A stretch of DNA of 64,000 nucleotides from positions 32,001 to 96,000 of IMG/VR virus record IMGVR_UViG_3300045988_151219. One strand, written 5' to 3'. The notes beneath the pieces were generated by a model. It was not told the DNA's origin, did not search any database, and saw only the letters and a list, made by a program, of their open reading frames with translations. Every line of letters begins with the position of its first letter. Position 1 is the first letter of the stretch. The DNA comes from a virus. The translations under genes and the position numbers were made by a program. This document shows positions 1,576 through 32,929 of the stretch, one piece after another.

Positions 1576-1614
1576 TATATAAACCTCTCTTTCTCTTATT
1601 ATAGAAACTCTATA

Positions 1615-2806
1615 TTATAAGTGCCACTTAAAATTTCCACACCTATATACTTTAATATATTTAAGGCTCTCCATAATGAAATCTTCTTTATTTGCATGAG
1701 TTAAAGATTCTTCATAGAGTTTTGGATATTTCTTTTTCAGATATTTTAATTGTGCTTTTTCCCTCGGTACAAATAAATACCCTTTATAATCTGTCCAGTA
1801 GTAACTAAGTGAATTAGACACTAACTTGAATCCCGCTTTAGAATATATTCCTCCGGTGAAAAAGTCATTATCTGAAAATGTGACAATATTTTTTTGAGTT
1901 ACTTAAATATATATGATATTTTAAAAGTTTTTGAAATCCGCCAATTACTATATACCCTTGTTTTACTACGTACCTTATTATCTCAAATTCTTCTTTGTCT
2001 TTAGAATATCTGGATTTAGAAAATGAAATTAAAGACATTAATTCTCCCTGGAAATAAAGTCCGTAATTTATACTTTGATAATGTGAACTTCCCTGCAAGT
2101 GATATAAGTCTGTAAACTCTTTAACTTCTTTATAAGATAATTTAACTATTGTACATTTTCTGGCATATATTTTAGTTTTTGGAATAAAAATATTTTCTAT
2201 AAGCTGCTTTATCTTCTTCCGTCTATTTCTCCAATCTACGTCAAAAATAGAAAGCAATCTTATTCCTTTTTCTCGACACTGTAAATATTTCTTATAATGA
2301 TAGTCTTTAGGCTTTGCTGGATACCTGTGAAAATAACTGCCGTTACACTCAATAGCTATTTTGTATTTTGGTATATAGAAATCAAGCCCTCTTTGATTTC
2401 TGATAAAATCTTTAGTATCTAAATATTTTAATAGTGTATTATATATTTCATTTTCAAATTTAGAGTTTGAAAAATTTAAATTATTAATATTTTCCTCTTT
2501 TAACGGAATGATTATATGTTCTTCTCTCCTATTTTCTCTTTTCTTTCTAACAGACGACTCCCTGCCACATTTCTGGCATCCCCCTAATTGTTCTTGTGTA
2601 GACATCTTAATGACATGTCCTACCATCTTATAGTAAATCCCATGTTTACAGCAGAAAAACGGTAACTTCTCTGTTACCGTAATCTCCGCTTTTCTTGCTC
2701 TTTCTTTATCTTCTTCTCTTGCTAACAGGTCTATAAACCACTCCGGAAACCTTTTATTTCTATTCCTTGTCTTCCAGCTTAGTTTAACTCTTTCTTCATT
2801 TGTCAT
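1615..2806 (-). pseudogene. Homing-endonuclease-like gene (PD-(D/E)XK / Hef-like core), split by a frameshift at an A7 run
   Basis: ORFs 1868-2806 and 1615-1821 belong to one gene. Core FYIPKYKIAIECNGSYFH and the ..IIRYVVKQGYIVIGGFQKLLKY.. block continue, after removal of one A from the coding-sense A7 run (plus T7 at 1889-1895), as NIVTFSDNDFFTGGIYSKAGFKLVSNSLSYYWTDYKG. A stop in the downstream frame lies just upstream of the run. Confidence 0.55.
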
Positions 2807-2924
2807 AGCTTATAACTATTGCAAAACCTTCATGAATATGTTAAAATAAATTAACTTAATTAATTAGTCTGGTCAGTTACGGTCAGATTCAAAGTGTGTA
2901 AGCGGCAACTTAAACACTTTATCT

Positions 2925-2948
2925 ACAGCCTTTATGGCTGTTTTTTAT
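2925..2948 (+). terminator. Plus-strand intrinsic-terminator-like hairpin in an otherwise all-minus region
   Basis: acagcc(2925-2930)-tttat-ggctgt(2936-2941) followed by a T run on the plus strand. Preceded by a second hairpin aaagtgt(2891-2897)/acacttt(2914-2920). The minus-strand reading has no U tract. Confidence 0.35.
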
Positions 2949-2985
2949 TGTATACATAAATTAATCCAATAATATAACTTCGACT

Positions 2986-3228
2986 TCAAATAAGATGAAT
3001 ATATTCCGCCTTATCAATGTAATCATCAATAAGTGCATTATCTTCTTCTGATGAATACCCAGGTATCCTACTTCTGAAAGGTGTTTGTTCAATTTCAGTT
3101 ACATCAGTTAATGTATTATCAAAATACGCAACAGCTGCTTTTTTTGCTACATCTTCATTAGCGACACGATATACATATACTACCGGTTTCTTAAGAAGTT
3201 TTACCACATAAGATTTATAAACTTTCAT
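2986..3228 (-). CDS. Hypothetical protein (80 aa)
   Basis: ORF-track entry in the same orientation and packing as its neighbours. No motif recognised. Confidence 0.55.
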   Translation of the reverse strand: MKVYKSYVVKLLKKPVVYVYRVANEDVAKKAAVAYFDNTLTDVTEIEQTPFRSRIPGYSSEEDNALIDDYIDKAEYIHLI

Positions 3229-3258
3229 TCTTTGTCACCCTAACCTAAATACATATTT

Positions 3259-3891
3259 TTATAGCTGTTGTAAAACAAAATATTTAGAAGCATTATTAAC
3301 TCTTTCAAAGGCATTATCTACATAACCTTGATAAGAACATTTGCCATTATAACGTTCATCCACTTCTTTAAAAGAATCGACTACTTTTGTTTCTAACTTA
3401 TATACATCTGGATTAGCTATTCCATAATTCAAAGGTGCGTAAACTTCATGTGCTACAATTAAAGAAATTGTTACTGAATGAAATTCTTTAAGATATTTAC
3501 TAAACTCTTTCATAGACATTTTACCGTTTTCATATTTTTTAGCCGCTGTCTCAAAAGCTTTTGCAAATTCAGGAGTATATAAAGTTATATTTTCCCCAGG
3601 TTCCATCTTACTTAACACTTCTTTTTTCTTTGCTTTATCAGATACTATTCCAGCCTGCTTTATAAGCCTGAAATTATCTAAATGTACTTTTTCAACTTTT
3701 GCAATATTAAAATAAATTTTGTCAGCATACTTCTTAAATTCAGTCAGGTCTTTACTCTCATTAGATACTGATGAAGTAACTTGATTAGATTTAGTATGTT
3801 TTACATCCGCTACTGTTTCATCTCCACCACAAGCTTTAACTAAACAAAGAATTAAAATTACTCCAATAAGATACTTCATCATTTTACTCAT
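3259..3891 (-). CDS. Secreted or lipid-anchored protein (possible lipoprotein); paralog of 5486-6112
   Basis: Start moved to ATG 3891 (GGGAAG RBS upstream): MSKMMKYLIGVILILCLVKAC|GG is a signal peptide with an imperfect lipobox. C-terminal block LIVAHEVYAPLNYGIANPDVYK matches VVVIYEVYDKINYSVTNATDYK of 5486-6112. Confidence 0.6.
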   Translation of the reverse strand: MSKMMKYLIGVILILCLVKACGGDETVADVKHTKSNQVTSSVSNESKDLTEFKKYADKIYFNIAKVEKVHLDNFRLIKQAGIVSDKAKKKEVLSKMEPGENITLYTPEFAKAFETAAKKYENGKMSMKEFSKYLKEFHSVTISLIVAHEVYAPLNYGIANPDVYKLETKVVDSFKEVDERYNGKCSYQGYVDNAFERVNNASKYFVLQQL

Positions 3892-3964
3892 TTTAAGCTT
3901 CCCTTTCTTTGACAGATTAACTGGTATAAACAATAGAATCTAAATTATATTTGTCAGCATACTC

Positions 3965-4552
3965 CTAAATAACATCTTTATATTCATTAGTGAACAATTT
4001 ATAGTCTTTAGAATATTCTTCAAAATCTTCAAAAATATCATAATCTTCATTACAAGGTCTTTCTTTAAGAGATTTAAACCTCTCTTTTAGAGTGATGTCG
4101 TCTAACTTAAAAAGTACGGGACAAACCTTGAAAGGCAAATAATCACTCAAGGAATAGTCAATCTTTTCCTTGATTTCTTTTTCTCTCTTACTGTTATTAT
4201 AAATCCGGTCATAAACTAAAGATGAAAATAACCACCTGTCAATAATACCAAAATTATCCAAACTATTTAAAACCTTGTACGGATAGTCAATACATTTCAA
4301 AACTTTCAAGACCATAGAAACATATTTATATCTTTCATTAAAATCAGGTTCCAGTTTATTCCACCCATAACTAATAATATCTACTTTAGTTAAAGCTTTA
4401 CCTACAAGCTTCTCTTTAACGATTTCTGCGGTCTTAGTCTTTCCTACTCCATCAAAGCCTTCAAATATAAATACAGTTGAATTTCTTTTGTTTGTACTTT
4501 TCATTAAATCAGCTAATTCATTAATTTCTTTTACATAACTTGTTGTCCTCAC
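3965..4552 (-). CDS. Thymidylate kinase-like P-loop nucleotide kinase
   Basis: VFIFEGFDGVGKTKTAE P-loop resembles the Tmk block FEG.DG.GKTT. A downstream IIDRWLFSSLVYD block resembles the DRY..S..AYQ region. Confidence 0.6.
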   Translation of the reverse strand: MRTTSYVKEINELADLMKSTNKRNSTVFIFEGFDGVGKTKTAEIVKEKLVGKALTKVDIISYGWNKLEPDFNERYKYVSMVLKVLKCIDYPYKVLNSLDNFGIIDRWLFSSLVYDRIYNNSKREKEIKEKIDYSLSDYLPFKVCPVLFKLDDITLKERFKSLKERPCNEDYDIFEDFEEYSKDYKLFTNEYKDVI

Positions 4553-4572
4553 TTTTATATTCTCCTTTAACT

Positions 4573-4950
4573 TTACAAATTTAACGTTTCTTTTAAATAA
4601 GGTTGTACATAATTATCTCCATAATTATCCTCATATTCATCTATTCGATAATACAAAGAGTAAATTTCTTTATCAAACGGACATTCTGAAATGTCAAATC
4701 CTTTTTCTTTAATAAATACTTCCCAATTTTTAGTTTTATCCTCTTGATAAATGTTTATCCATTCTTTCTCAAGCATTCCCCATAAGTCACAATCTTGATA
4801 GTGTTTATATTGTCGAACTTCCTCTATGTCAATAAGACGGTTTTTCATAGCCTCTATTTCTTTCAAATCTCGGCTTATCATGACTATTGTAGTTTCTTCT
4901 ATTTCTTCACTAAAACCATTTTCATAACTCTCTGTAAGTACATAATACAT
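4573..4950 (-). CDS. Hypothetical protein; paralog of 57001-57396
   Basis: MYYVLTESYENG...TTIVMISRDLKEIEAMKNRLIDIEEVRQ versus MIYVLQEICTDY...ARIVMISRDEQRVKDAKRQLEIKEEIYQ. Acidic Tyr-rich C-termini are also similar. Confidence 0.65.
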   Translation of the reverse strand: MYYVLTESYENGFSEEIEETTIVMISRDLKEIEAMKNRLIDIEEVRQYKHYQDCDLWGMLEKEWINIYQEDKTKNWEVFIKEKGFDISECPFDKEIYSLYYRIDEYEDNYGDNYVQPYLKETLNL

Positions 4951-4972
4951 AACATTTCCTCCTTTACAATAA

Positions 4973-5161
4973 TTAAAGATGTTTCTTAATAATCGTAAAA
5001 ATACTAAATATCAACAAAATAAACCAAATAAATAAAATCCAAAAGTAAAGCGTGTTGTCTGTTAAAAGACTGGCAAAAACATAAGCAGGAGCTACAACGA
5101 AAATTAAATTCACAGCTACTGTAAGAACCAAAACAGTAATTAAATACCAAATTAATTTCAT
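4973..5161 (-). CDS. Small two-TM membrane protein (62 aa)
   Basis: Start moved to ATG 5161 behind an AAGGAGG RBS. MKLIWYLITVLVLTVAVNLIFVVAPAYVF...ILFIWFILLIFSIFTII is almost entirely hydrophobic. Confidence 0.6.
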   Translation of the reverse strand: MKLIWYLITVLVLTVAVNLIFVVAPAYVFASLLTDNTLYFWILFIWFILLIFSIFTIIKKHL

Positions 5162-5171
5162 GATTTCCTCC

Positions 5172-5300
5172 TTAGTTATTAAAAATTGCCAACACAATAA
5201 ACGTACCGATAAGCGTGAAAATTAAATGAATTAGAGGATGTGGCGAAATCGGCTTTACCAAAATTGCTACAATAAATGCAATGACTGCAAACAGAAACAT
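5172..5300 (-). CDS. Small membrane protein (42 aa), below ORF-track cutoff
   Basis: Own translation MFLFAVIAFIVAILVKPISPHPLIHLIFTLIGTFIVLAIFNN*. First ORF downstream of the consensus promoter at 5349-5377. Confidence 0.4.
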   Translation of the reverse strand: MFLFAVIAFIVAILVKPISPHPLIHLIFTLIGTFIVLAIFNN

Positions 5301-5348
5301 GATTGTTGCTCCTCTCTTTTAAAAATATAATTTGTTTTCTATGTCTAT

Positions 5349-5377
5349 ATTATAAAAGAGATTGTAAAATATGTCAA
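5349..5377 (-). promoter_or_regulatory. Perfect sigma70-consensus promoter (TTGACA-17 nt-TATAAT)
   Basis: Minus strand reads cTTGACAtattttacaatctctttTATAATata. -35 is plus 5372-5377, -10 is plus 5349-5354, spacer is exactly 17 nt. Near-identical to the element at 57672-57700. Confidence 0.75.
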
Positions 5378-5382
5378 GTGCT

Positions 5383-5420
5383 TTTATAAAAAATTCTACA
5401 TAAAATTATATGTAGAATTT
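5383..5420 (-). terminator. Rho-independent terminator downstream of 5486-6112
   Basis: 10-bp stem aattctacat (5392-5401) / atgtagaatt (5410-5419). On the minus strand it is followed by TTTTTTATAAAAG. Confidence 0.65.
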
Positions 5421-5485
5421 AAATACTTTATACTATTAACTTACCATGACAGATTTTCTCCTTTAGATAGTATGTAAATACAAGA

Positions 5486-6112
5486 TTAATTTTTGATAGA
5501 TTGTGTGATTTCATCAGTAGCTTCTTTTACAGCAGTTTCATAATCTAAATCATAACCTAACTCTTCTGCTCTTTCTTTCATAACTCTTACTATAATACCA
5601 TTTTCTTTATAATCAGTAGCGTTAGTAACAGAATAGTTTATTTTATCATAAACTTCATATATTACTACAACGTTTATCATATATTCCTGGAACGCCTGAA
5701 TAGCTAAATCATAATCTTCCTGGTCAAGTCTTCCAGCATCAAAAGCCTGTTGCACATTACTTATAAAAGCAAAAGGATATGTAGAATAAATCTGTTTAGA
5801 TGAATAAGGCTTTAAGTCTTCCAGTATCTTCCTTTTCTCTTTCTTATGTATATTAGGCTTTCCTGCTCTGTCAATTACTCTATAATTTTTTAAAGCTCTT
5901 TCTTTAGCTATCTTTTTCTCTTGTTCAGAAGCTTTCGCATATTCCATAAGCAATGCCGTTGTGTGGTCACGCTCCTGTATTAAAATGCTCTGCGGAGGTT
6001 CCGGTTTATGTTGTACTCTTAAGAACTCTCCTACATAAAGTAAGGTAGCAGTAATAGCTAAGGCTACTATAATTAATGAAATGATATACTTTCTTTTTTC
6101 TAACTGCTGCAT
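5486..6112 (-). CDS. N-terminally membrane-anchored protein; paralog of 3259-3891
   Basis: 208 aa with N-terminal TM segment YIISLIIVALAITATLLYVGEF. Shares the C-terminal block with the 3259-3891 protein. Confidence 0.65.
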   Translation of the reverse strand: MQQLEKRKYIISLIIVALAITATLLYVGEFLRVQHKPEPPQSILIQERDHTTALLMEYAKASEQEKKIAKERALKNYRVIDRAGKPNIHKKEKRKILEDLKPYSSKQIYSTYPFAFISNVQQAFDAGRLDQEDYDLAIQAFQEYMINVVVIYEVYDKINYSVTNATDYKENGIIVRVMKERAEELGYDLDYETAVKEATDEITQSIKN

Positions 6113-6129
6113 TAAGGCTCCTTCCTAAG

Positions 6130-6267
6130 TCAAAATAAAAAATATAAAAATATGATTAACATTATTATACTATATTTTAAAATTTTCCTCTCTTCTATAA
6201 AACAAGAAAGGAAAAAGATAATAATTATTGCAGTTGATATATAAACAGAAATAACCGCATTTACCAT
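6130..6267 (-). CDS. Candidate tiny hydrophobic ORF (45 aa)
   Basis: Own translation MVNAVISVYISTAIIIIFFLSCFIEERKILKYSIIMLIIFLYFLF*. Its ATG overlaps the stop of the upstream mini-ORF (ATGGTAA). Confidence 0.3.
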   Translation of the reverse strand: MVNAVISVYISTAIIIIFFLSCFIEERKILKYSIIMLIIFLYFLF

Positions 6268-6332
6268 TTCTTATGATTCCTAATTTCATCTTCTATAATA
6301 AATAAAAGTATTAAACTAATTATTATACCCAT
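6261..6332 (-). CDS. Candidate tiny ORF (23 aa)
   Basis: Own translation MGIIISLILLFIIEDEIRNHKKW*. Chained with the neighbouring mini-ORFs. Confidence 0.2.
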   Translation of the reverse strand: MGIIISLILLFIIEDEIRNHKKW

Positions 6333-6342
6333 TTATATACCT

Positions 6343-6441
6343 CTAACTTTTAAAGTAGTTAGCTAAACTAAAAATAATACTACATAAAGTAAATGCAAAG
6401 ATTGTCCAAAATATAGACTCAATAAGCCACTCTTTATACAT
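6343..6441 (-). CDS. Candidate tiny hydrophobic ORF (32 aa)
   Basis: Own translation MYKEWLIESIFWTIFAFTLCSIIFSLANYFKS*, preceded by AGAGAGG. Confidence 0.3.
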   Translation of the reverse strand: MYKEWLIESIFWTIFAFTLCSIIFSLANYFKS

Positions 6442-6728
6442 TATATTTCTACCTCTCTTTATTAACTCTTAGAGAAACAACGATAAAAATATATAATAGC
6501 TTAATTAAGTCCAGGAATTGGCTATTTTTAAAACTTATATATAACTAAGTCTAAGAAACTATAAATTTTTAGACTTAATATAGAAACAACCCTTACTAAA
6601 GACCACCATTAGCTTAATCTCAAAGACGATTTCTTATATTGCCATACAAGACCCTTAGCAGAAGTCTTTAAGGTAAGTTTCCCCTACAGTATTTTTAAAA
6701 GCCTTAAAAACGACTATACGAAATAAAG

Positions 6729-6965
6729 CTACCTAAAGCTACTTGATATGTCATTGTCATAGCTTAAATATTTTAAAAGCACACAACACTCATCTTTAAT
6801 ATAAGCTTCTTCTATATCATGAAAAACTTGGTCACTACGTTCTTTTGTTTTAAAGGTTAAAGTGTATGTTCTTCTACAGCTTGAAACATAAATAGCATTA
6901 TTACTATCATCATAAAAAACATAATCTACAGTAGGAATAATTAGATTTTTAAAAATAATAGACAT
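6729..6965 (-). CDS. Hypothetical protein (78 aa)
   Basis: ORF-track entry 4 nt downstream of the preceding gene. No motif recognised. Confidence 0.55.
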   Translation of the reverse strand: MSIIFKNLIIPTVDYVFYDDSNNAIYVSSCRRTYTLTFKTKERSDQVFHDIEEAYIKDECCVLLKYLSYDNDISSSFR

Positions 6966-6969
6966 AAAT

Positions 6970-7780
6970 TTACCTCTCTTCCAAAAAACTACTTATTATA
7001 TTATATGAACTTCTTTTTAAATCTTCTTCACTATTTATTTCTTTATCTCCAAAAAGCTCATATCTACCCTCAAGGTCTATATCACCACCTATACTCACCC
7101 TATCAAAAACTTTAATGTTCCCTTGCAGTTTAGCCCTATCATAAACTTTGGAACTTCCGTATAAATTAACTCCGTGAAGTAATTGAGATTCTCCAAAAAC
7201 TTGAGCATCATCATACAGTTTTACAGAATTAAATATAAAAGCATCACCATATACTCTACATCTGTTTTTGATTTCAGATAAATCTTTCACTTTAGCATTT
7301 CCACAAACTCTGGCAAATCCTGATATAAACGACTCTGAAACTAATGCATTTCCGTAAACTTTTGCACTCTCTCTTATGTTACTTTTATATTCAACTCTTG
7401 CATTTTCAAATATTTTTGAATAATCTCTAATAGTAGAATTAGTTACTACAGCGTTATCATAAACTTTTGCATTACTATAAATTTCAGAATTTCCTCTTAT
7501 TTCAGCATTACCATAGACACGAACCTTTCCTTTAAGAACACCCATATACTTTTGCAAAATCACAAATTCTGGAATCATCTTTCACCTTAGCATTTTGATA
7601 TACCATTGCATGGTCATAAACCCAACATGTTCCTTCTTGTGATAAATTCTCCTCACTTTCTACAAATCCTCCTAAGGCTCCCCTCTGAACATAAGGTAAT
7701 GATTTTAAGGCTCTTATTCTATATAAAATATGACCATCTATAACTTTTGTCTCGTCAGTTAATTCGTATTTTCTCCCCAT
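6970..7780 (-). pseudogene. Hexapeptide-repeat (left-handed beta-helix-like) protein, split into two overlapping ORFs by a +1 frame change
   Basis: ORF 7532-7780 (YELTDETKVIDGHILYRIRALK...GGFVESEENLS..G.CWVYDHAMVYQNAKVKDDSRICDFAKVYG) and ORF 6970-7578 (about 25 repeats of the [YF]xNAx[VI] type). Dropping one G of coding-sense GGG (plus CCC 7541-7543) joins them as ..FAKVYGVLKGKVRVYGNAEI.. and keeps the repeat in register. An internal restart at ATG (MGVLKGK) is the alternative. Confidence 0.5.
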
Positions 7781-7815
7781 ATCTATTCTCCAATCTTACT
7801 ATATTATACTACAAG

Positions 7816-7850
7816 TTAAAAAGAGTTACTGCTTAAAGTAACTCTTTTCT
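7816..7850 (-). terminator. Rho-independent terminator after 7863-9071
   Basis: Stem aaaagagttac (7818-7828) / gtaactctttt (7838-7848). The minus strand continues with a T run. Confidence 0.6.
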
Positions 7851-7862
7851 TTAAATCTCTTA

Positions 7863-9071
7863 TTAGCCTAACAGTTTCTTATGTATTTTTACAGACTTGT
7901 TACGTTTCTTGTTAGCTTGAGAAGTGTGGGCTTTCTTGCGTGCTTTTACTAAAGCCATCTTCTGTGCTGAACTTAAACGTTTCTTTCTGGTAGGAATAGT
8001 CTTCTTAACGACTGCCTTATCTCTTACTACTTTTACAGTCTTTTCTTCAATCTTCTCGTCATGGTCATCATCTTCTTCTAAATCTTCTCCGTCTTCTAAT
8101 TCAGTCTCTAAGTCTTCCGGTTCTCCCTCATCTTTAGGTTCTTCCGACATCTTAGCAAAATCATCAGGTTCTTCTCCATCGTCATTTTCCGGCTCTTCGT
8201 CAGAATCAAAATAGTTTGACACCAACGCATCAAAATCAGCCTGATCAGCAAATTCATTAAGTGCTTCTGTTAAAGCGTTAGCAAAAGATGAGCCGTCATA
8301 AAGTGAAGATTGTACATCTAAGTCTTTTGTTACGTCACCTAACATACTGTTTGAGATATTGATTGTTCCTGTAAAGGAATCTGTATTTGCCTGGATATCT
8401 GCTTTTACTTTTACTTCATCAGCATATTCAGTGGTTTTTTCATCAGGGTCTACAACACCCAGCAGTAATGAAAATTCAGTTGAAGCTGTTCCTACTTTAG
8501 TATCATCCAAAGTATTTTCAAATACAATAGGAAGCGGAGAAATACCTAAGAAAATTACATTACCCTCTGTCTCGTGTGAAAGCTTTCCTAAGAAAGTTGA
8601 ACCAATTACAGCGTTAGGAATAGAATCAGAAAGAACTTCTGTATCCCCTTCCGCTTCAAATACTTTCAAAAGCTTTTTGGAAGCATAAGAAGTAAGAGAC
8701 TTAACAAGACCGTCTTTTACCTGCTGTTTGAGCCATGCTAAAGCTTTGCCTGCTCCCTGCTGTTTCATGATATAAAGCATTTTTTCTAAGATAGAATCAA
8801 TATCATCTGATTCATAGAAATAGTCTTTACCATTAATAGTTACTACTATCTGTTTAGGGTCTTTAGCTTTCTTAATATTGAGGTCAAGAGATTCCGTGAT
8901 TTCCGGATTTAATTCTTCCCCTTCTTCTACAGTGTCATCATCTTCTAATACTTCCGGCGGGTCTTTAGGCTCTTCTGCCTGGAAATCCACATCTTCATTA
9001 ATCTTCTTGAGCTTTTTCTTCATCGGTTCTGTGGATTCATTGAGTCTCTGAAAAATTGATTTTACAGACAT
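7863..9071 (-). CDS. Acidic protein with a strongly basic C-terminal tail; member 1 of the N-terminal 'SI..LNE' motif trio (candidate internal/ejected virion protein)
   Basis: 402 aa. N-terminus MSVKSIFQRLNES, long D/E-rich stretches, C-terminus KKTIPTRKKRLSSAQKMALVKARKKAHTSQANKKRNKSVKIHKKLLG. Confidence 0.65.
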   Translation of the reverse strand: MSVKSIFQRLNESTEPMKKKLKKINEDVDFQAEEPKDPPEVLEDDDTVEEGEELNPEITESLDLNIKKAKDPKQIVVTINGKDYFYESDDIDSILEKMLYIMKQQGAGKALAWLKQQVKDGLVKSLTSYASKKLLKVFEAEGDTEVLSDSIPNAVIGSTFLGKLSHETEGNVIFLGISPLPIVFENTLDDTKVGTASTEFSLLLGVVDPDEKTTEYADEVKVKADIQANTDSFTGTINISNSMLGDVTKDLDVQSSLYDGSSFANALTEALNEFADQADFDALVSNYFDSDEEPENDDGEEPDDFAKMSEEPKDEGEPEDLETELEDGEDLEEDDDHDEKIEEKTVKVVRDKAVVKKTIPTRKKRLSSAQKMALVKARKKAHTSQANKKRNKSVKIHKKLLG

Positions 9072-9080
9072 AATTAACTC

Positions 9081-9650
9081 CTATTCTTCATCTTTAATAA
9101 TTTTGTTTGGATTTAAATAAGCTACTCCCTCTTTGTCGACTTCAACAAAGAAAGGCTTTCCATCATTTAAAGCTTTCATCAATTTATTTGAATCAGCTTT
9201 GTCACCAATTATATAATCGAAAATTGAACTTCTGTCTAATGATAAGTTCTGCTCACCATTAAAGGCTATCTGTATAGTCTTGTTATCTACATCAACCAAA
9301 AATCCTAAGTCTTTGTAAATCTGCATATCGTAATCTATTAGAGATTCTTTTATGCCACTGCCTATAACTTCCTCTGAATCATTTTTTAAATCTAAAGATA
9401 AGTCATATGCTAAATCTTTAACTAATCTCGGATTAGCTTCACTAAGATAGCTATATAAGTCTTCTGGTGAATTATATTCATGCAGAAAACGATAAAATAG
9501 AGAATTGGCTAATTCATCAGTCAGATGTATTCCTTTTTCGTTTATATATAAATATTCTTTATTAGAGTCTAATTCATCAAAGGCAGACTCTTTTAAAAAT
9601 CTGATTTTCCTTGACTCGTTTAACCCTTGAATGATTGACTTTAAAGACAT
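9081..9650 (-). CDS. Hypothetical protein; member 2 of the 'SI..LNE' motif trio
   Basis: 189 aa. N-terminus MSLKSIIQGLNES. Confidence 0.65.
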   Translation of the reverse strand: MSLKSIIQGLNESRKIRFLKESAFDELDSNKEYLYINEKGIHLTDELANSLFYRFLHEYNSPEDLYSYLSEANPRLVKDLAYDLSLDLKNDSEEVIGSGIKESLIDYDMQIYKDLGFLVDVDNKTIQIAFNGEQNLSLDRSSIFDYIIGDKADSNKLMKALNDGKPFFVEVDKEGVAYLNPNKIIKDEE

Positions 9651-9659
9651 ATTTACCTC

Positions 9660-10046
9660 TTATAAGTATTCTTTAATAAGGTCTTCGGTTATTTCTCCGT
9701 CATCACCTAAACCATGTACAAACATAACATAGTCTTCATCGTCATAGATTTCAAAATATCCGTTTTCATCTAAGACCCAGGTAGTTCCTTCCGGAATGGT
9801 AATAAAATTCTTCTGATCTCCATCAGCCCATTTCATAATAGCATAAATTTTATTAAGTTCATCAGGCTTAACAAAATTCATTATGCAGTCTTCCGCTGTA
9901 AGCTTAGTTTCATATTTCTTTTTTAATTTGTATTCTTTTCCTACTTCTAATGAACCCATGTTAATTGTTACTTCAACCTGTTCATCGTTTTCGCTTTCAT
10001 TCATTCTTGCTTCGTTCAAGTTACGAATAATTGAATTTACAGCCAT
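9660..10046 (-). CDS. Hypothetical acidic protein; member 3 of the 'SI..LNE' motif trio
   Basis: 128 aa. N-terminus MAVNSIIRNLNEA. Confidence 0.65.
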   Translation of the reverse strand: MAVNSIIRNLNEARMNESENDEQVEVTINMGSLEVGKEYKLKKKYETKLTAEDCIMNFVKPDELNKIYAIMKWADGDQKNFITIPEGTTWVLDENGYFEIYDDEDYVMFVHGLGDDGEITEDLIKEYL

Positions 10047-10074
10047 CTTTCACTACTCCTTGTAATTAATATTT

Positions 10075-10106
10075 TAGTAAGAGGGAGATTATGTTCCCTC
10101 TTACTA
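10075..10106 (-). other. Strong stem-loop between the sheath gene and the next gene (no U tract)
   Basis: 12-bp perfect stem tagtaagaggga (10075-10086) / tccctcttacta (10095-10106) with an 8-nt loop. Neither strand has a clear U run after it. Confidence 0.45.
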
Positions 10107-10119
10107 AGTATATATAATC

Positions 10120-11949
10120 TTATTTTTCTCCGTCTAATTTGATATTCTTTGTAGCGTCTTCTTCTGAATAAGAAGTGATTCCATCTTTAGAAAGTACATA
10201 AGAAATATCAATATATTCAGCCGGTTTTATAATAGCAACTTTGATAAGTCCAGGCATCCGCCCATTATCAATATCTTCCTGTGATACTGTAGTTTCATCC
10301 ATCTTAAGGATATAATCATATATACCCCTGGATTCTTTTACCGCTCTGAAATAGGGGTCAAGTCTTAATTTCCATCTATTCCACGTATTCAATTCGTTCT
10401 GGTCAAACAAGAAATCAAGGGATTCTCTTAAAATGACTTTACGGAAATAGTTAGAAAGACGTCTTGCGTTGATATAACGTAAAGATTTATTAGTAGCGTA
10501 TTCGTCATAAACTTTAGAAGTACGAACACCCATTAAGCATAAGCCTTTTCCTCTAACATCTACAACGGAGTTTATATTTGTATCCGTGGAGTAAAGCATA
10601 TCCCGCTGTTCTTTTGTAGTAGAGTATTCAAGTCCATCAAGACCTACTACTTTACCACGGTTTACACCTGCCGGAGAAATCCATTCATGAGATACATTGT
10701 CAGAAGCTGTAAAGGTTGCTGCAATATATGGTGTAATATCTACTAAATCAATCTGTCCGGTAATAGCATTTCTAATATATCCGTTCGGATAAGTTAAGAA
10801 AATGTGTGAGTTATCAAATTTGTATCCTGTATCAACAAATTCTCCGTAAGCTCGTACATAATCTCTTGCCTGTTCAGGAGTAAGTCCGAAAGGAAGTGAC
10901 GGCAAATAAACTAAATCTTTACGATAGTTTATAATCTTTTCCGCTTCTTCATATACTTTCCTGTCAAACCATCCAGGAACTACTAAAGTAGCATAGTCAA
11001 CACGGTCCGGGTCATATAAGGATTTCATCCCTGAATTACCCTCGCCTATAACATCATCTACTGTAACGTCTAATCCTGAATTGCCGTCAGCTAATACAGT
11101 GTCAAGGTCAGCAGCATCAGCTTTAGTATATCCATCTTTTACTATACAAGTTACATAAGAAGAGAATCTGTTAATGATATTTCCAATAAAAGATATCTCT
11201 TTCGGGTCTATACTGCAACGATAGGTTTCTACCATATCCCCATCTTTATTAGCCAAAGTATACACTATTTTAGTTGAGTCATCAGTAGAAAGCTTAAGTG
11301 AAATCTTGTAGTCATTATAGTATGACGTCAAGTCTTTCGTATTAAATTTAATCCACGGCTCAACTCCTGCCGGCTTCTTATATTTATAATCAGCTTTTGC
11401 AGTTACAGTTCCTGTTGGAGCCGTGTCAAAGTTGATTTCTACTTTACCATTTACATAATTTACAGTGCCTTCGTAACCTATCTTATCACAAAGAAGTTTA
11501 CCTGCCTGGTTATCTTTCAGAACAATTTCTTTTGTGTCAAAAGTTACAAAAACAGTAGTAGAACCTTTAAGAAGAGGTTTATTGCTAAGTGTTGCACTAA
11601 ATTTTTTACCTTCAGTATCTTTTGTAAGCGTAAGTGCTTCGTCAGCTACAAACTTATACGGTGAAAAAGTAGAAGCTACACTTGCATTTTTACTAATTAC
11701 ACGCTGAAACCATACTTCTTTGTTAGTAGTTAGACCTACAAGCATAGCTCGTACAGCACTGTTATTAGCTATAGGATTACCAAATAAATTAATTGCCTGT
11801 TTGACTGAACTTACTAAAGTTAATTCCAGTGGACCCTTAATAGCTACACCCACAATTGCAGTAGCGTTAGAGATTTTGACTACGGAATCGCCCTGTTCTT
11901 CAATCTCTGATACAGACACTCTGGGAGCTACGCCATTATATTCTGCCAT
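10120..11949 (-). CDS. Contractile tail sheath protein
   Basis: 609 aa. C-terminal blocks WISPAGVNRGKVVGL and NINSVVDVRGKGLCLMGVRT are typical of phage sheath proteins. Size and position in the structural module fit. Confidence 0.85.
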   Translation of the reverse strand: MAEYNGVAPRVSVSEIEEQGDSVVKISNATAIVGVAIKGPLELTLVSSVKQAINLFGNPIANNSAVRAMLVGLTTNKEVWFQRVISKNASVASTFSPYKFVADEALTLTKDTEGKKFSATLSNKPLLKGSTTVFVTFDTKEIVLKDNQAGKLLCDKIGYEGTVNYVNGKVEINFDTAPTGTVTAKADYKYKKPAGVEPWIKFNTKDLTSYYNDYKISLKLSTDDSTKIVYTLANKDGDMVETYRCSIDPKEISFIGNIINRFSSYVTCIVKDGYTKADAADLDTVLADGNSGLDVTVDDVIGEGNSGMKSLYDPDRVDYATLVVPGWFDRKVYEEAEKIINYRKDLVYLPSLPFGLTPEQARDYVRAYGEFVDTGYKFDNSHIFLTYPNGYIRNAITGQIDLVDITPYIAATFTASDNVSHEWISPAGVNRGKVVGLDGLEYSTTKEQRDMLYSTDTNINSVVDVRGKGLCLMGVRTSKVYDEYATNKSLRYINARRLSNYFRKVILRESLDFLFDQNELNTWNRWKLRLDPYFRAVKESRGIYDYILKMDETTVSQEDIDNGRMPGLIKVAIIKPAEYIDISYVLSKDGITSYSEEDATKNIKLDGEK

Positions 11950-15082: not shown

Positions 15083-16558
15083 TTAATGTCCGTCAGACGC
15101 CTGTTTTTCATAGAAAATTGTACCCCGAACATAAAGATTCGGTTCAATCATTCTCTTAGCGTAAGACGTTGCATATCCACGGCGACCCATAAAGTCGTCC
15201 AACATTACCAGTTCAGTGTTGTAGAACATCATGTAGGGACTATATACAAACCCTGTATCAATCAGCGTATCGCCTTTGTAACCTACCAGGTAATCGTTTT
15301 CACCTAAGAACGGGTCAAAGTATACGTCTACCTGTCCATCAAGTTTACCTGCAAAATACGGACCAGCTGCCGGAGCTGCTGAACCCTGAAAGCGGGGAGC
15401 CCCTACCATGTTTAAGAGGTCCTGTGCTTTCTTTCCGCAAACTACCCAATTACCGCGGACACGTTTTGTACGGTTGTAAATTGCGTTACACTGTACATGA
15501 ATTTCATTTACGAAAGTCTGAGCCCATTCAGACTGCGAAATGTTAGCTGCAAAAGCGTTGTAGTAGTTATTGAATGAAGAAACAGCTTTAGTACCGTTCC
15601 AAATAGAATTAATGATATCACCGTCAGTTTCATGTTTCAGTTCATTAGCAGCTGCAACAAGCAGTGATTCAGCAATATCAATACCCTGTGCCATCTGGAT
15701 ATCATAAGCTGCATCCAGTGAGAACAGTGAACGGAGCTTTCTCGGCTTAGCAGTTACAAACGTATCAGAAATCTGGATATTGATTTCCGGTACTGCTGCC
15801 GGAGCATATTCTAAATCCTGTTCATAAGAAATAGATACATCGTGAGGACCAGCAACAATGCCCGCAAGTTCTACTACGCCGGTAGCATAGTCAACAGTAC
15901 CTGTAATAGTTCCGCCAGTTGCTTCTGCTAATACTCCATCAGAAGAGTCTTCAACAACTGCATCACCTACGTGGATTAATACAGTTCCAGGAACTACCGG
16001 TACATTTTCAATAGACGTTTTATAAGTAGCAGTAGCTGTCGGTTCATGTGCTTCATCTTCAACTACTTCGCCAGTATAGTTACGTCCATTGTAACCGGCA
16101 GTTTCAAACTGCCCAAATAAAGTATCGCCTTTTTTATTGCGACCTCTGTTTGTACCACGGACATATTTCAGGAAGAAAATCTGCCCCTGTTTCTGCTGCA
16201 AAGGCTGTACAGATACAAGCTGTTCAGCAATGATGTTCGGAAAGACTCCCGTGATCACATCGAAAGCCTGGCGTTTCAGATTCAGTGTATTAACGTTACC
16301 TGAATTATTATATTTGTAAGACTGTGTACCGCTGATTCCGAAAGTCGGGTCAGCAGCTTCGTAAATGGGATGACCCATAGTCTTGCAGTTATACGCCTGG
16401 TCTACTGATTCAAGAAGCATTCCCAAACGAATCTTTTCTTCGTCAGAAAATGAACGACCTTTTGAACGACGGTCTGCTTCTACACAGTCCATACGTCCTT
16501 TGTACTTTTTAAGCAGATATTCACTCTGCTGATATAATTTACTCTGCCATGATTCCAT
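15083..16558 (-). CDS. Major capsid protein
   Basis: 491 aa, immediately downstream of the protease-scaffold gene and followed by a terminator. GC content is visibly higher than its surroundings (highly expressed gene). Possible maturation site ..GMLLE|S at aa 50. Confidence 0.75.
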   Translation of the reverse strand: MESWQSKLYQQSEYLLKKYKGRMDCVEADRRSKGRSFSDEEKIRLGMLLESVDQAYNCKTMGHPIYEAADPTFGISGTQSYKYNNSGNVNTLNLKRQAFDVITGVFPNIIAEQLVSVQPLQQKQGQIFFLKYVRGTNRGRNKKGDTLFGQFETAGYNGRNYTGEVVEDEAHEPTATATYKTSIENVPVVPGTVLIHVGDAVVEDSSDGVLAEATGGTITGTVDYATGVVELAGIVAGPHDVSISYEQDLEYAPAAVPEINIQISDTFVTAKPRKLRSLFSLDAAYDIQMAQGIDIAESLLVAAANELKHETDGDIINSIWNGTKAVSSFNNYYNAFAANISQSEWAQTFVNEIHVQCNAIYNRTKRVRGNWVVCGKKAQDLLNMVGAPRFQGSAAPAAGPYFAGKLDGQVDVYFDPFLGENDYLVGYKGDTLIDTGFVYSPYMMFYNTELVMLDDFMGRRGYATSYAKRMIEPNLYVRGTIFYEKQASDGH

Positions 16559-16572
16559 ACACTATTACCCCT

Positions 16573-17961
16573 TTAGTTTATCTGGGTAAGAAAGCTATTT
16601 AACCTTGTATGATTTTCGTTAATTGAATTGATTGTTTCTACCTTTTGAGGCTTATTAACTATTGACTCATTAACTACTGTCGTTTGGTAATATGCTTTCG
16701 CCCCATAGTCAAAATTTGATTTCTTTTTGACGCTCTTCTTTATTTTAGGCTTTGAGATAACAGGCTTTACAGACTCTACTATCTTTTCCTCTTTTTTAGA
16801 AAGCTGCGTCTTTAAATTCTTTATTTGCTTATTTAAAAGCTTTTTGGTTTCGGTAGATTCTTCTATCTTAGAAAAATAAGTGGCTTTTAACATAGAATTT
16901 GATTCCTGTAAAAAGTCTATCTCTTTACTAAGACTATCAATAGATTCTTCTAACTTCATGTTAGAAGCTATAGCAACATCAACTTCTTTAGATTTCTCGA
17001 CAAGTGCCAGCTTACTTTTAGAGATTTCTTTATTAAAGTGACTTGCCTGGCTGTCTATAGATTCTTTTAAATCTTTTATATCTTTACGATATGAAGAAAC
17101 TTGGTTATTTAGAGTCTGGATGTTGTCTGTAAGTGTAGAGATTTTCGCTCTAAGTGTAGAAATTTCTTCTTCACTTTCAAGTAATTTAGACTCTGTTATA
17201 ATATTTTCTTCAAAAAGATTCTCGTAAGACTCGTCTAAAATCTCTTTGTCAGAAGTGCTGTTTTTGATTTTAGCGTCTATCTTACTTTTAATAGAATCAT
17301 ATATATTAGAATCCATAGATTCAAATATCGGTTTTAATGATTTAATATCCGATGAAGTCGCTTCATCAAGATATTTATTCAATGTGTCAATAAATGTAGC
17401 ATTAGACGATTCATTGACCGGAGAAAGTCTTGAAGTAGAAAAGCCAGGATTAGGTACAAAGTCAAATCCTTTAAAAACATAGTTATCTTCATCAGGATAA
17501 CTTATACCATCTCTAACGGTCATTGACCCTCTGGCTCTTGCAGAAATACCCATTTTACTACCATACTTTATCATGGTATATACCATTCTTCCTGCTGGTG
17601 TATTGAGTATGTCGGCTCTTCCCCACAAGACTTTTTTAGCTTCATCCCACCATAATTTAATTACATTATGGGATACTTTATTTAAATCAATATCAAACCG
17701 TTCTTCCGGATGTGATAATTCTCCGAATAATGTACGGTTTTCCATTAATTCAATAGTGGTTGGATAGTTACGTATCTTATTCTCTACTAAAGAAAAAGTG
17801 TAACCCCGCATATTGTTATTTATTTCATCAACTGAAATAAACGGACCCTCAACGGAACAAAGCACAGCATCGTTAGGTACGTTACTTTCAGTAGATTCAC
17901 ATATTTTTAATTGATGTACTTGTATATTGCTTAAGTATTGTAATTCTTTATCTGTAGGCAA
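16573..17961 (-). CDS. Prohead protease (T4 gp21-like) fused to a coiled-coil scaffold domain
   Basis: N-terminal 200 aa: LFGELSHPEERFDIDL...KLWWDE..KVLWGRADIL.TP.G......IKYGSKMGISARARGS aligns with T4 gp21 ALGELNHPPRANVD...DMWWKG.DVYGRARVI.....G......IRAGWIPGVSSRGLGS. C-terminal 260 aa is K/E/S-rich heptad-like coiled coil. TTG start behind GGGGGTG. Confidence 0.85.
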   Translation of the reverse strand: MPTDKELQYLSNIQVHQLKICESTESNVPNDAVLCSVEGPFISVDEINNNMRGYTFSLVENKIRNYPTTIELMENRTLFGELSHPEERFDIDLNKVSHNVIKLWWDEAKKVLWGRADILNTPAGRMVYTMIKYGSKMGISARARGSMTVRDGISYPDEDNYVFKGFDFVPNPGFSTSRLSPVNESSNATFIDTLNKYLDEATSSDIKSLKPIFESMDSNIYDSIKSKIDAKIKNSTSDKEILDESYENLFEENIITESKLLESEEEISTLRAKISTLTDNIQTLNNQVSSYRKDIKDLKESIDSQASHFNKEISKSKLALVEKSKEVDVAIASNMKLEESIDSLSKEIDFLQESNSMLKATYFSKIEESTETKKLLNKQIKNLKTQLSKKEEKIVESVKPVISKPKIKKSVKKKSNFDYGAKAYYQTTVVNESIVNKPQKVETINSINENHTRLNSFLTQIN

Positions 17962-20230: not shown

Positions 20231-20235
20231 AAACT

Positions 20236-20568
20236 TTATTCCTCATAAGAAAATCCGATTCCGTTATATCTCGGTCGGCCTAAAGCTTCTATTGTGAGCT
20301 TATATAAATCTTTACTTCTAATCACTACTATATCAAAATCATATATTGTGTGATTAACATTCTGGCGATATTTAATTTTAAATCCGCCTGTAAATTTAGT
20401 GCTGTTATTTACATACCGCCCATCAGTCGCAATAGCAGGAACGAAATATTTCTCATAATCATTCCTGCTCACGTCTATAGAAATGATTTTATTACTGTCT
20501 TCTACTTCTTCTAAGTCAGTACGATAATCGATTGAATTAAGAAAAGATATAAGTACCTCTTTTAACAT
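20236..20568 (-). CDS. Hypothetical protein (110 aa) between the AAA+ and vWA genes
   Basis: ORF-track entry, 1-5 nt from both neighbours. Confidence 0.6.
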   Translation of the reverse strand: MLKEVLISFLNSIDYRTDLEEVEDSNKIISIDVSRNDYEKYFVPAIATDGRYVNNSTKFTGGFKIKYRQNVNHTIYDFDIVVIRSKDLYKLTIEALGRPRYNGIGFSYEE

Positions 20569-20569
20569 C

Positions 20570-23683: not shown

Positions 23684-23695
23684 GATAATTTCTCC

Positions 23696-24250: not shown

Positions 24251-24278
24251 TGTTTAACCTCTCTTTGAATTAATTTTG

Positions 24279-25283: not shown

Positions 25284-25319
25284 TGGCAGTACCCTTCTAC
25301 AAACAGTTTATATTTTATA

Positions 25320-26404: not shown

Positions 26405-26405
26405 G

Positions 26406-28442: not shown

Positions 28443-28443
28443 T

Positions 28444-29460: not shown

Positions 29461-29464
29461 TTAT

Positions 29465-30571: not shown

Positions 30572-30588
30572 CTTAAGTTCCTTTCATC

Positions 30589-31011: not shown

Positions 31012-31301
31012 TTAAAATATTCCCCGAATAATTTTTTATGTATATTAAGAACTTCTTCCTGTGAAATCTTTCCCTGTATAAAATCATTTAATGTATTAGC
31101 CTGTATCTTTACATCTAAAATTTCATACATAGATACTGATTGATAAGAAAGCTCTATTAAAGAATGTGTTAAGAATGATGAAAGATACTTGGCTAAAGTT
31201 AAGTCGTTAGGCTGCTCTTTGCCATTAAGAACTTTTCTAAGTCCTATATAGAAAGCTTTAGTCCTCATTGATTTAAAAAATTCCTGCTTAACGTTTACCA
31301 T
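31008..31301 (-). CDS. Hypothetical protein (97 aa)
   Basis: Coupled to portal (1-nt overlap) and to the Hint gene (4-nt overlap). Confidence 0.6.
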   Translation of the reverse strand: MVNVKQEFFKSMRTKAFYIGLRKVLNGKEQPNDLTLAKYLSSFLTHSLIELSYQSVSMYEILDVKIQANTLNDFIQGKISQEEVLNIHKKLFGEYFK

Positions 31302-32929
31302 TACATTTCATCTCCCATCTCTTCTTCAGGAACTCCCTCTTCAAAATCGTCTGATAAATCCTTCTGAATAATAGAAGGTGTTTTTTCTTCTTTAGGCATT
31401 ATATTATCCCATAACTCTTTGAGGTTAAGCATCTTAGCTAAAATATATTCATACAAAGCGTCTTTGTCTATCTTCTTAAAGAACTCTTCATCTTCGGAGA
31501 TAATAGATTTTAAAGTTTGTGCCATAGTCAACGTGTCATTTAATGTAGTTGACCTGTCATTTTCCTCTGCTGAATAAAGTCTCGGAAGTACAATTGTAAA
31601 CTTATTGCAGTCAGCTTCTCGCCCTTGTGTATATAAATAATAATCACACAAAGCTTTAATGCCTACAGCTAAACATGCCTGGCAATGTCTAACCATTCTA
31701 CTATATCTAACGTCTATCTTCAAAAGGCTCTGATTGCCTATTCCGCCTGAAACATCTTCTGCATCTCCTAAATAAGCTTTCGGTATCTTTAAAGCTCCGA
31801 AAAGTTTTGTTCTATAATAATCTAAATCAAGAAGTGCTTTAATATCCATGTCTCCGCCAACAGTGTCTACAGTAACATCACCTTTACCGTTTCGTGTAGG
31901 AACATATATAGACCCACCTAACGGTAACGGCTGGTTGCGACTGGAATACTTCTTTCCTGGAATATCAACAGTTTCTGTTTTAGTAATCGCTTTCTGAAAT
32001 TCCGCTAAAGCAGATTTTACTTTCTTTCTGTCAAAAGCCCCTACTTCTATTTTAAAGATACGATAAAAAGCAGATTTATTAAATCTTGCTACTAATAAAA
32101 TCAGCTCTAAAAGCTCTAAAGTCTCAAAAGCTTCTCGTGCCTGATTTATAAAAGAAGTACCAAATTTAACTTTAAATTCTTTGCTTATTTCAGTAGTTCC
32201 TTTATAGTACCTTAAATTGATTTTATCTCTATGATTTCCTCTATCATTTATGATATGGATATAATCTCTTGTACCGTAAATGACTTTATTCTTATCTTTG
32301 TCTTCTGCTACAAAGCCTACGTTATCTCCATATTCCTGAATATCCTGTACAGCAAGAGGGTCTGTTATTATTTCATATAAATGTCCTCTCTTGACCACCA
32401 GCTTTTCGTCTTGCTCGTCTTTAGGCTTTTCTCTTTCAGCTATGATGTCAGATTCATAAGTCTTTAAAAAGACTTCTCCATAAGCTACAAGATTATAAGC
32501 AATAGGATATAAGTTCTGGTCTATCTTTAAAATGTCATAAAGAAAATGATGTACAGTGTCTATTATATCTTCTTTTTCTTTTTCCGTTCCTGATATATTA
32601 TAAAGATTTCTAATAGACTTGTATTCCTCTAAATTAGGCTCTGCCCAACAAACATGCATACGGTCAAAGTCCATCTGCGTTGCATCTTCTGTTATCATTT
32701 CAATAGCAGAACCTACTACAGAATCATTCATCATATTCTGTAAGTCAGTTATTATATCCTGTCTTGTGTTTGATAACTGTTTTACAGACGAAATAAAACT
32801 TAAAAGATTCTGTACAGATGAACCCTCTATTTCAGATAAAAAAGTTTCTTCTACCTGTAAACCTGAACCTGATTTATTAACAGGTATTAAAGTTTTAAGA
32901 GACTCGTTAATACTCTTGATTATGTCCAC
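31301..32929 (-). CDS. Portal protein (by position and size)
   Basis: 542 aa, immediately downstream of TerL. Size is close to T4 gp20. N-terminus MDIIKSINES resembles the SI..LNE motif. Confidence 0.6.
   Translation of the reverse strand: MDIIKSINESLKTLIPVNKSGSGLQVEETFLSEIEGSSVQNLLSFISSVKQLSNTRQDIITDLQNMMNDSVVGSAIEMITEDATQMDFDRMHVCWAEPNLEEYKSIRNLYNISGTEKEKEDIIDTVHHFLYDILKIDQNLYPIAYNLVAYGEVFLKTYESDIIAEREKPKDEQDEKLVVKRGHLYEIITDPLAVQDIQEYGDNVGFVAEDKDKNKVIYGTRDYIHIINDRGNHRDKINLRYYKGTTEISKEFKVKFGTSFINQAREAFETLELLELILLVARFNKSAFYRIFKIEVGAFDRKKVKSALAEFQKAITKTETVDIPGKKYSSRNQPLPLGGSIYVPTRNGKGDVTVDTVGGDMDIKALLDLDYYRTKLFGALKIPKAYLGDAEDVSGGIGNQSLLKIDVRYSRMVRHCQACLAVGIKALCDYYLYTQGREADCNKFTIVLPRLYSAEENDRSTTLNDTLTMAQTLKSIISEDEEFFKKIDKDALYEYILAKMLNLKELWDNIMPKEEKTPSIIQKDLSDDFEEGVPEEEMGDEM

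Follow-up and report, generated by a model that had tools for sequence, protein, structure and literature searches.

Why should three consecutive genes of a phage, whose products are otherwise unrelated in sequence, begin with nearly the same dozen amino acids? The question is raised by a 64,000-nucleotide stretch of viral DNA (positions 32,001 to 96,000 of IMG/VR record IMGVR_UViG_3300045988_151219; hereafter the window), in which the genes g128, g189 and g402 stand in tandem. Each product starts with a leader that ends in Leu-Asn-Glu. We think it rather probable, judging from sequence, that this is a capsid-targeting leader like that of bacteriophage T4, one that the head protease of the phage would remove.

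The window belongs to the genome, ~138–147 kb long, of an uncultivated phage that recurs in many ENA and Logan metagenome assemblies. Its guanine-plus-cytosine (GC) content is 33%. The nearest cultured relatives, at ~34% identity of the capsid protein, are Bacillus phage SP-15, Listeria phage LIS04, Bacillus phage vB_BceM-HSE3 (HSE3) and Streptococcus phage vB_SagM-GXN1. The region gave no blastn match to GenBank phages.

The shared leader

The three N-termini are MAVNSIIRNLNEA (g128), MSLKSIIQGLNES (g189) and MSVKSIFQRLNES (g402). The open reading frame (ORF) translations confirm them, and the gene coordinates, as the initial annotation had quoted them; the genes lie on the minus strand, so that g128 is the first of the three in the order of transcription. 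The leader has 12 residues with the consensus M-[S/A]-[V/L]-x-S-I-[F/I]-x-x-L-N-E, and L-N-E↓S/A occupies residues 10–13 of each protein (an arrow marks a cut or candidate cut throughout). The portal protein of the phage, and the orthologue in a relative that we call L004, have I-N-E↓S. Past residue 13, BLASTP detects no similarity among the three proteins (best E 0.13–1.9), in agreement with the earlier statement that their bodies are unrelated. A Shine–Dalgarno sequence precedes each gene, and the intergenic spacing is 9 nt.

On what does selection act? At 7 of the 10 residues that are identical in the leaders of g402 and g189 the codons are different. As the initial annotation had argued, such differences between copies mean that it is the peptide that is under selection, and not the DNA. 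Among the 71 minus-strand ORFs (20,266 residues) there are four instances of the pattern I[IF]xx[LI]NE[SA], each at an N-terminus: in g128, g189, g402 and the portal. Shuffling 2000 times gave a mean expectation of 0.019 in total and of 0.001 for N-termini. The looser pattern [LI]NE[SAG] occurs 10 times in the window ORFs, four times at residues 7–10. A degenerate DNA pattern for the leader, run over IMG/VR, gave a single match, outside any ORF and thus due to chance.

How well is the leader kept? Between this phage and L004 the overall identity is 93% for the tail tube, 71% for the sheath, ~54–57% for g402 and 27% for g189, while the leader is identical at 12/13 residues in g402 and 8/13 in g189. 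In population variants it is nearly unchanged, and in g128 it is invariant in 14 variants. Residues 4–12 are weakly predicted to be helical in an AlphaFold2 model of g402. These data support the view that selection maintains the leader as a peptide, and that it ends in the type of site predicted to be cut by the phage's own S77 (gp21-type) protease.

The initial annotation had suggested looking for the motif on other genes of related phages. At the right end of the LIS04 genome (L009) there are three small genes whose products have the N-termini MIEFIRSKSLNE↓A, MPVNLRIIDLNE↓T and MIEFRRLNE↓A; the bodies of the two MIEF proteins are unrelated. One of the three, LIS04_213, has a weak match to poly(ADP-ribose) polymerase (PARP)/ADP-ribosyltransferase (E=0.007, below threshold), which recalls T4 Alt. 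Across LIS04, 7 of 12 hydrophobic-NE-[SAG] sites fall within the first 45 residues of a protein. HSE3, on the other hand, has no extra leader-type genes of this kind.

The g402 family and the capsid cleavage site

To what family does g402 belong? It matches PHROG 1053, the family of phage P1 gp21 (not to be confused with the protease, T4 gp21), at E=3.7e-20 and through its basic C-terminal segment. The same profile is matched by LIS04_64, SP15_037, HSE3 gp066 and metagenomic proteins including P0013 and P0016. With a P1-like member of the family as query, tblastn retrieves P1 gp21 and the SP-15, LIS04 and HSE3 proteins; with P0013 it retrieves nothing, and with LIS04_64 or P1 gp21 close relatives only. 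P1 gene 21, of the same family as g402, lies at 54592-55407 of NC_005856 (L035).

The C-terminal signature of the family is KVVRxGxVxK...KKRLSxxQKxALxKARKKAHT. Basic character is confined in g402 to the last ~45 residues, the last 42 having a net charge of +16. Directly ahead of the basic segment most members have a hydrophobic-x-Glu site: MLTE↓AFKKVV in P1, LVE↓KVVKVV in P0010 and P0015, and IEE↓KTVKVV in g402. Further sites lie near the N-terminus. The SP-15, LIS04 and HSE3 homologues have LNE↓G, LNE↓S and INE↓S, respectively, at residues 20–24, and metagenomic homologues begin MSxMSSLFxQMRE↓S, close to MSVKSIFQRLNE↓S, with two to four further xNE↓[GS] sites. In the relative L036, whose capsid protein has SLNE62↓ATQASD, the family member (P0015) has MNE↓G, LNE↓G and MNE↓S. 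In the window the capsid candidates IYE↓A and LLE↓S are of the same class as the LNE↓S of g402 but differ in the residue at P2, the second before the cut.

Is this family cut by the head protease? In P1 the capsid protein is cut between Glu120 and Ser121 (NKAMLE↓SVAAEM), as established by Edman sequencing (PMC9024508). A family-alignment scan of IMG/VR gave 18 loci (L017–L034), all of them P1-like, with P1 itself as L035. We aligned the capsid proteins, read them at the P1 site, and counted Glu-type and Asp-type sites in the first 100 residues of the gp21-like proteins; L023, in which no gp21-like ORF was called, was left out, so that 18 lineages including P1 were tabulated. In 12 of them (P1 included) the capsid site is hydrophobic-hydrophobic-Glu↓Ser, and the gp21-like N-termini contain 27 Glu-type and 0 Asp-type sites. 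In the remaining six it is ..Leu-Asp↓Ser/Ala, and the counts are 0 Glu-type and 12 Asp-type. The match is without exception (Fisher's exact P=2.6e-10, without phylogenetic correction). Other proteins of the P1-like loci, by comparison, use Glu and Asp in mixed proportions (78:60 and 36:50). Phe stands at P2 of the capsid site in two lineages, and in both of them the gp21-like sites have Tyr or Phe at that position.

P1 DarA provides a positive control. LLE68↓A is the sole such motif in its first 160 residues. Residue 70 is the first to appear in the cryo-electron microscopy (cryo-EM) model of DarA; the authors of the model infer that Pro removes residues 1–69 (PMC12810830). The motif coincides with this processed boundary.

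The simplest explanation of the covariation, which we regard as strong indirect evidence, is that the PHROG 1053 family is a substrate of the head protease. If so, the family would lie inside the prohead at the time when the protease becomes active. The literature searched appears to contain no earlier proposal that the head protease cuts PHROG 1053. In its record P1 gene 21 is called ‘baseplate or tail tube’, a label of long standing that goes back to classical genetics; the covariation points to its reassignment as a head-protease substrate, and P1 gp21 may be an unrecognized head-core protein.

Protease, capsid protein and portal

What can be said of the protease of this phage? The initial annotation recognized a gp21 homologue, and correctly so: the protein matches Pfam Peptidase_S77, and alignment with the T4 gp21 structure 5JBL places His84 and Ser140 at two positions that are Ala in the crystallized chain. 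We take these Ala residues to be the mutated catalytic His and Ser. A coiled-coil C-terminal extension of ~250 residues bears most of the 13 hydrophobic-x-E-[SAG] sites in the protein. When all window ORFs are ranked by the density of hydrophobic-x-E-[S/A/G], this protease-scaffold protein comes first (13 sites, P=5e-6), and g189, g402 and g128 occupy ranks 2–4 with 3–6 sites each. The protease-scaffold protein is also first in HSE3 (16 sites, P=2.5e-8), where the g402 homologue gp066 is second; in LIS04 the g402 homologue is itself first. The proteases of this phage, LIS04, SP-15 and HSE3 all conserve two motifs, L-x-[IL]-[CV]-E↓[SG] near residue 22 and [FL]-E-S near residue 214, which resemble the self-processing sites of T4 gp21 (PMC9026906).

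Where might the capsid protein be cut? Relatives conserve a hydrophobic-x-E↓[A/S/T] site immediately ahead of a (T)Q-x-SD motif; the aligned sites read LLE↓TTQASD (LIS04), MFE↓TTQPSD (SP-15), MTE↓STQTSD (HSE3), LNE↓ATQASD (L036) and IYE67↓AAD (window). Residue 98 of the window protein aligns with residue 30 of mature T4 gp23*; a mature start at Ala68 would therefore reproduce the T4 spacing almost exactly. The LLE50↓S put forward by the initial annotation is present in the sequence, but it is not conserved in relatives and fits the T4 spacing less well, and we have rejected it as the likely maturation site in favour of IYE67↓A68. Together with CVE27↓A it may represent an extra cut inside the propeptide. 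As the candidate IYE67↓A lacks Asn at P2, the protease would have no need of Asn there, and the Asn is a feature of the leader. In close relatives the products of the capsid gene are called as 35, 49, 106, 362 and 450 aa, which suggests that the gene is interrupted in some strains, as it is in SP-15, where an endonuclease gene splits it.

The portal N-terminus MDIIKSINES had been noted as similar, and it is the fourth of the I[IF]xx[LI]NE[SA] matches given above.

A possible mechanism, and its rivals

How might such a leader operate? The 12 residues, probably forming an amphipathic helix, would bind a component of the prohead core and so carry the portal together with g402, g189 and g128 into the prohead as it assembles. 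Removal of the leader, after Glu12, would then fall to the S77 protease, possibly with a second cut at a nearby hydrophobic-x-Glu site. Three parts of this scheme we infer: the cleavage itself, targeting by the leader and not by the body, and the scaffold or core as partner. The portal nucleates the core, and its possession of the leader would fit the last of these.

Need the three proteins share one fate? P1 gp21 was not detected in mature virions, so g402 may be a transient core or scaffold-like protein and not a delivered effector; we think this probably the case, perhaps with the basic C-terminal peptide left behind on the DNA. The other two are fast-evolving orphan genes that carry the leader of g402. 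A word-indexed search of 5.8 billion proteins found no homologue of g128 or g189 beyond their own clusters of >90% identity, an exhaustive phmmer search of 1.84 billion representatives added nothing for g189, and neither matches Pfam, PHROGs or NCBIfam. Being acidic, orphan and fast-evolving, they are better candidates for cargo than g402, and may be retained and delivered. The initial annotation had offered the hypothesis that all three are packaged, protease-processed and possibly ejected proteins. Of this view the comparative data support a selected leader, the covariation of the g402 family with the capsid site and a design parallel to that of T4, with packaging and cleavage as predictions; ejection and an anti-restriction function, by contrast, are unsupported, and the proteins are acidic.

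A more ambitious scheme, which we regard as unlikely in its entirety, would make the leader a portable prohead-core address tag that the portal shares with a conserved core protein and with fast-evolving orphan cargo. PHROG 1053 would then supply the internal assembly component so far missing from P1-like and SP-15-like phages, dismantled by the protease while its basic C-terminal peptide stays with the packaged DNA, and g189 and g128 would be effectors ejected to counter host defence, possibly by mimicking DNA.

Several observations weigh against a capsid-targeting leader. All three proteins are acidic (isoelectric point, pI, 4.2–4.5), and T4 internal proteins are basic. The genes lie between those of sheath and tube, a position kept with P1 gene 21 and its tail label. 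The covariation bears on the family of g402 and not directly on g189 or g128. None of the window's capsid candidates (IYE↓A, LLE↓S and CVE↓A) has Asn at P2, so that it is the general hydrophobic-x-E rule that connects the leader with the protease. The leader motif is missing from the portal of LIS04. A scan of ~10 kb on each flank, which brings the coverage to ~84 of the ~138 kb of the genome, revealed no further leader-bearing gene, and a literature search for virion proteomics of SP-15-group phages found none. AlphaFold2 was uninformative, giving a predicted local distance difference test (pLDDT) score of 52 for g402 from a 16-sequence alignment and 36 for g128 as a single sequence. Searched against BFVD with Foldseek, the g402 model has no match at E≤0.001; the best (E 1.7e-3) is a 309-aa protein equal in length to HSE3 gp066 and possibly that homologue.

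Might all three proteins, targeted and cut as above, be transient components, accessory to the prohead core or scaffold, that are degraded and expelled before DNA packaging, so that nothing is delivered? We consider this somewhat unlikely. P1 gp21 is not among the 23 virion proteins detected using liquid chromatography–tandem mass spectrometry (LC-MS/MS), although ORFs 54, 55, 57 and 58 around gene 21 were detected (PMC9024508), and a cryo-EM study of P1 from head to baseplate makes no mention of it (PMC12810830). The three proteins are acidic like T4 gp22 and dense in candidate cut sites, and no separate scaffold protein is reported in the P1 literature. The P1 proteome is nevertheless weak evidence on this point, because a very basic C-terminal fragment may escape tryptic LC-MS/MS. 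Moreover g189 and g128 are fast-evolving orphans, and g128 is absent from L004, behaviour more typical of cargo that interacts with the host than of assembly machinery.

A role in tail assembly, with the leader as a docking peptide (for a chaperone-like protein, for example) and its likeness to a protease site a coincidence, seems to us quite improbable. The initial annotation had warned of a tail-related role, and the caveat was apt: the order sheath–PHROG 1053–tube is kept in the window, in L004, in P1 and in the 18 P1-like loci. The absence of P1 gp21 from virions fits a tail chaperone, likewise a non-virion protein, as well as it fits a degraded core protein, and the record of P1 gene 21 carries a baseplate or tail tube label. 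Yet that label could stem from amber mutations in gene 21 that are polar on pmgG and bplB, a possibility that we infer. In SP-15, LIS04, HSE3 and L036, furthermore, the family gene follows a gp13-like neck gene and is not beside the sheath; the portal bears a matching leader; and the covariation of Glu and Asp with the capsid maturation site is hard to explain by a function in the tail.

That the leader is a mere relic of duplication of a gene 5′ end, kept for reasons unconnected with the virion (translation initiation, N-terminal stability, chance), is very improbable: three tandem genes 9 nt apart make such a duplication the likely origin of the leader, but the codons have diverged while the peptide was kept, the leader is conserved in a relative whose g189 body is only 27% identical, the motif recurs on the unlinked portal gene, and similar leaders are found in distant members of the family.

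Comparison with known systems

How does a capsid-targeting leader in this phage compare with those described? In T4 the capsid-targeting sequence (CTS) directs proteins to the prohead and is then cut off (PMC9026906). The resemblance is one of design: a leader of ~10–12 residues on otherwise unrelated proteins, ending in hydrophobic-x-Glu followed by a small residue, with hydrophobic residues at P7 and P3 and Glu at P1 of the cut. Both phages have an S77 protease with His and Ser at the catalytic positions, a capsid protein of Gp23 fold, and variable or orphan cargo genes. There is, however, no sequence homology with the T4 leader MKTYQEFIAE, so that the likeness is one of analogy or of deep divergence. 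In further contrast to T4, the cargo is acidic and not basic, the genes lie between sheath and tube, and the leader is also found on the portal and on the PHROG 1053 family.

With P1 gp21, g402 shares the basic C-terminal segment, an acidic middle, N-terminal hydrophobic-x-acidic-small motifs and a position downstream of the sheath. The leader differs (MSKNFFQSGAF...LME↓S in P1), P1 has no leader-sharing orphans by gene 21, and the P1 literature consulted assigns gp21 no function in the head. P1 DarB has at its N-terminus a signal of more than 9 and no more than 30 residues, which suffices to send a reporter into the capsid (PMC9024508). By its description this too is an N-terminal signal into a Gp23-type capsid, in a phage with a PHROG 1053 gene. 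Unlike what we propose for the leader, DarB targeting needs other Dar proteins, and cleavage of the signal has not been reported.

In the giant phages phiKZ, 201phi2-1 and SPN3US, gp21-like proteases cut at S/A/G-x-E or A-x-E (PMC5694885, PMC10052503), and the SPN3US portal is processed by a gp21-type protease (PMC10052503). They share with this phage a diverged gp21 homologue, which in them cuts behind Glu in numerous head proteins, portal and ejection proteins among them; their propeptides, however, are mostly long (111–254 residues) and do not form a short leader common to unrelated proteins. The principle is therefore already known from T4, P1 and the giant phages. Here the leader is non-homologous, the cargo is acidic, and the leader is shared with the portal and a conserved family.

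What would follow if the capsid-targeting leader is real? The T4 principle would extend to a distant, uncultivated lineage of low GC content whose nearest cultured relatives infect Bacillus, Listeria and Streptococcus. A 12-residue tag would be available for trying to load foreign proteins into such capsids, and two orphan genes would be flagged as candidate delivered effectors. The combination of motif-density ranking, shared leaders and covariation with the capsid site may be reusable for head-internal proteins of other metagenomic phages.

Gene order and neighbouring features

In this region of the window every gene is encoded on the minus strand (table 1), and transcription runs from the sheath through g128 and g189 to g402.

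Table 1. Positions of the leader-bearing genes and related features (window numbering unless a genome is named).
Feature	Position	Strand	Basis or remark
g128, 128-aa acidic orphan, pI 4.3, second candidate site MNE17↓S	9660..10046	-	ORF, site scan
g128 leader, codons 1–13	10008..10046	-	MAVNSIIRNLNE↓A
g189, 189-aa acidic protein, pI 4.5, second candidate site LKE21↓S	9081..9650	-	ORF, site scan
g189 leader, codons 1–13	9612..9650	-	MSLKSIIQGLNE↓S
g402, 402 aa, PHROG 1053 (P1 gp21 family), acidic tracts, conserved second INE26	7863..9071	-	profile match
g402 leader, codons 1–13	9033..9071	-	MSVKSIFQRLNE↓S
g402 basic C-terminal segment, residues ~344–402	7866..8042	-	family conservation
Terminator-like hairpin, 13-bp stem	10074..10107	-	between sheath gene and g128
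Tail sheath	10120..11949	-	upstream neighbour of g128
Tail tube protein, PF06841	1048..1575	-	Pfam match
Gp23-fold major capsid protein; candidate sites IYE67↓A68, CVE27↓A, LLE50↓S	15083..16558	-	profile match, alignment
S77 (T4 gp21-type) prohead protease, residues ~1–215, with coiled-coil scaffold-like domain	16573..17961	-	Pfam Peptidase_S77, structure match
T4-type portal (Pfam Portal_T4), GTG start, N-terminus MDIIKSINE↓S	31301..32929	-	Pfam, ORF
LIS04_213, LIS04_215, LIS04_217	L009 40285-40869, 41324-41605, 41996-42460		leader-sharing small genes

Could one of the three genes encode the tail tube? This identity was rejected: g128, g189 and g402 match no tube family in Pfam, PHROG or NCBIfam, and none of them is the tube since the true tube gene is located elsewhere. 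In P1 the late operon reads 23 (capsid), 22 (sheath), 21, pmgG and bplB (tube), and the same order is common to 18/18 P1-like loci. Found in the window, in P1 and in all 18 loci, the arrangement sheath–PHROG 1053–tube is ancient. L004 has only two genes between sheath and tube, encoding proteins of 180 aa (start MSVGSIIRNINES) and 422 aa (start MSVKSIFKRLNES). The syntenic 180-aa gene is the counterpart of g189, and g128 has none. The tube gene of L004 directly follows the g402 orthologue, and the ~6 kb that separate the two genes in the window are specific to the lineage.

The hairpin is strong and is followed by a T-rich tract; it stands directly past the sheath gene and ahead of g128. It may be an attenuator that lowers expression of the three leader-bearing genes.

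The extra ~6 kb (1576-7862, minus strand) encode a thymidylate-kinase-like protein, a membrane protein, several orphans and possibly a protein of restriction-endonuclease fold (weak MTES_1575 match), and the gene set varies between the 138-kb and 147-kb relatives. A β-solenoid (YdcK/hexapeptide-repeat) gene at 6970-7780 (minus strand) is split into two ORFs, of 82 and 202 aa, that overlap. A single ORF of 332 aa takes their place in the 147-kb relative L011, and the window copy is shorter by ~186 nt of repeat.

Between portal and protease/capsid genes lie ~13 kb of apparently non-structural genes (17999-31300, minus strand), among them those for a VWA-domain protein with an HNH-type PHROG match and a 1037-aa AAA ATPase. 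In the SP-15 group the same gap is filled by ribonucleotide reductase genes. Three genes of the window, at 32933-37150, 43755-45917 and 47012-50596 (minus strand), are interrupted by inteins with splicing and LAGLIDADG domains; they encode the large terminase (1405 aa, possibly with two inteins), a clamp-loader/DNA polymerase III δ′-like AAA protein and a radical SAM protein. Outside the window, upstream of its end (L012, 4907-10016), three tandem S-adenosylmethionine lyase genes stand by genes for S-adenosylmethionine synthetase, a dUTPase and a UDG-like protein. Further along from this lyase cluster is a DNA methylase gene, which in the relative L013 carries an intein.

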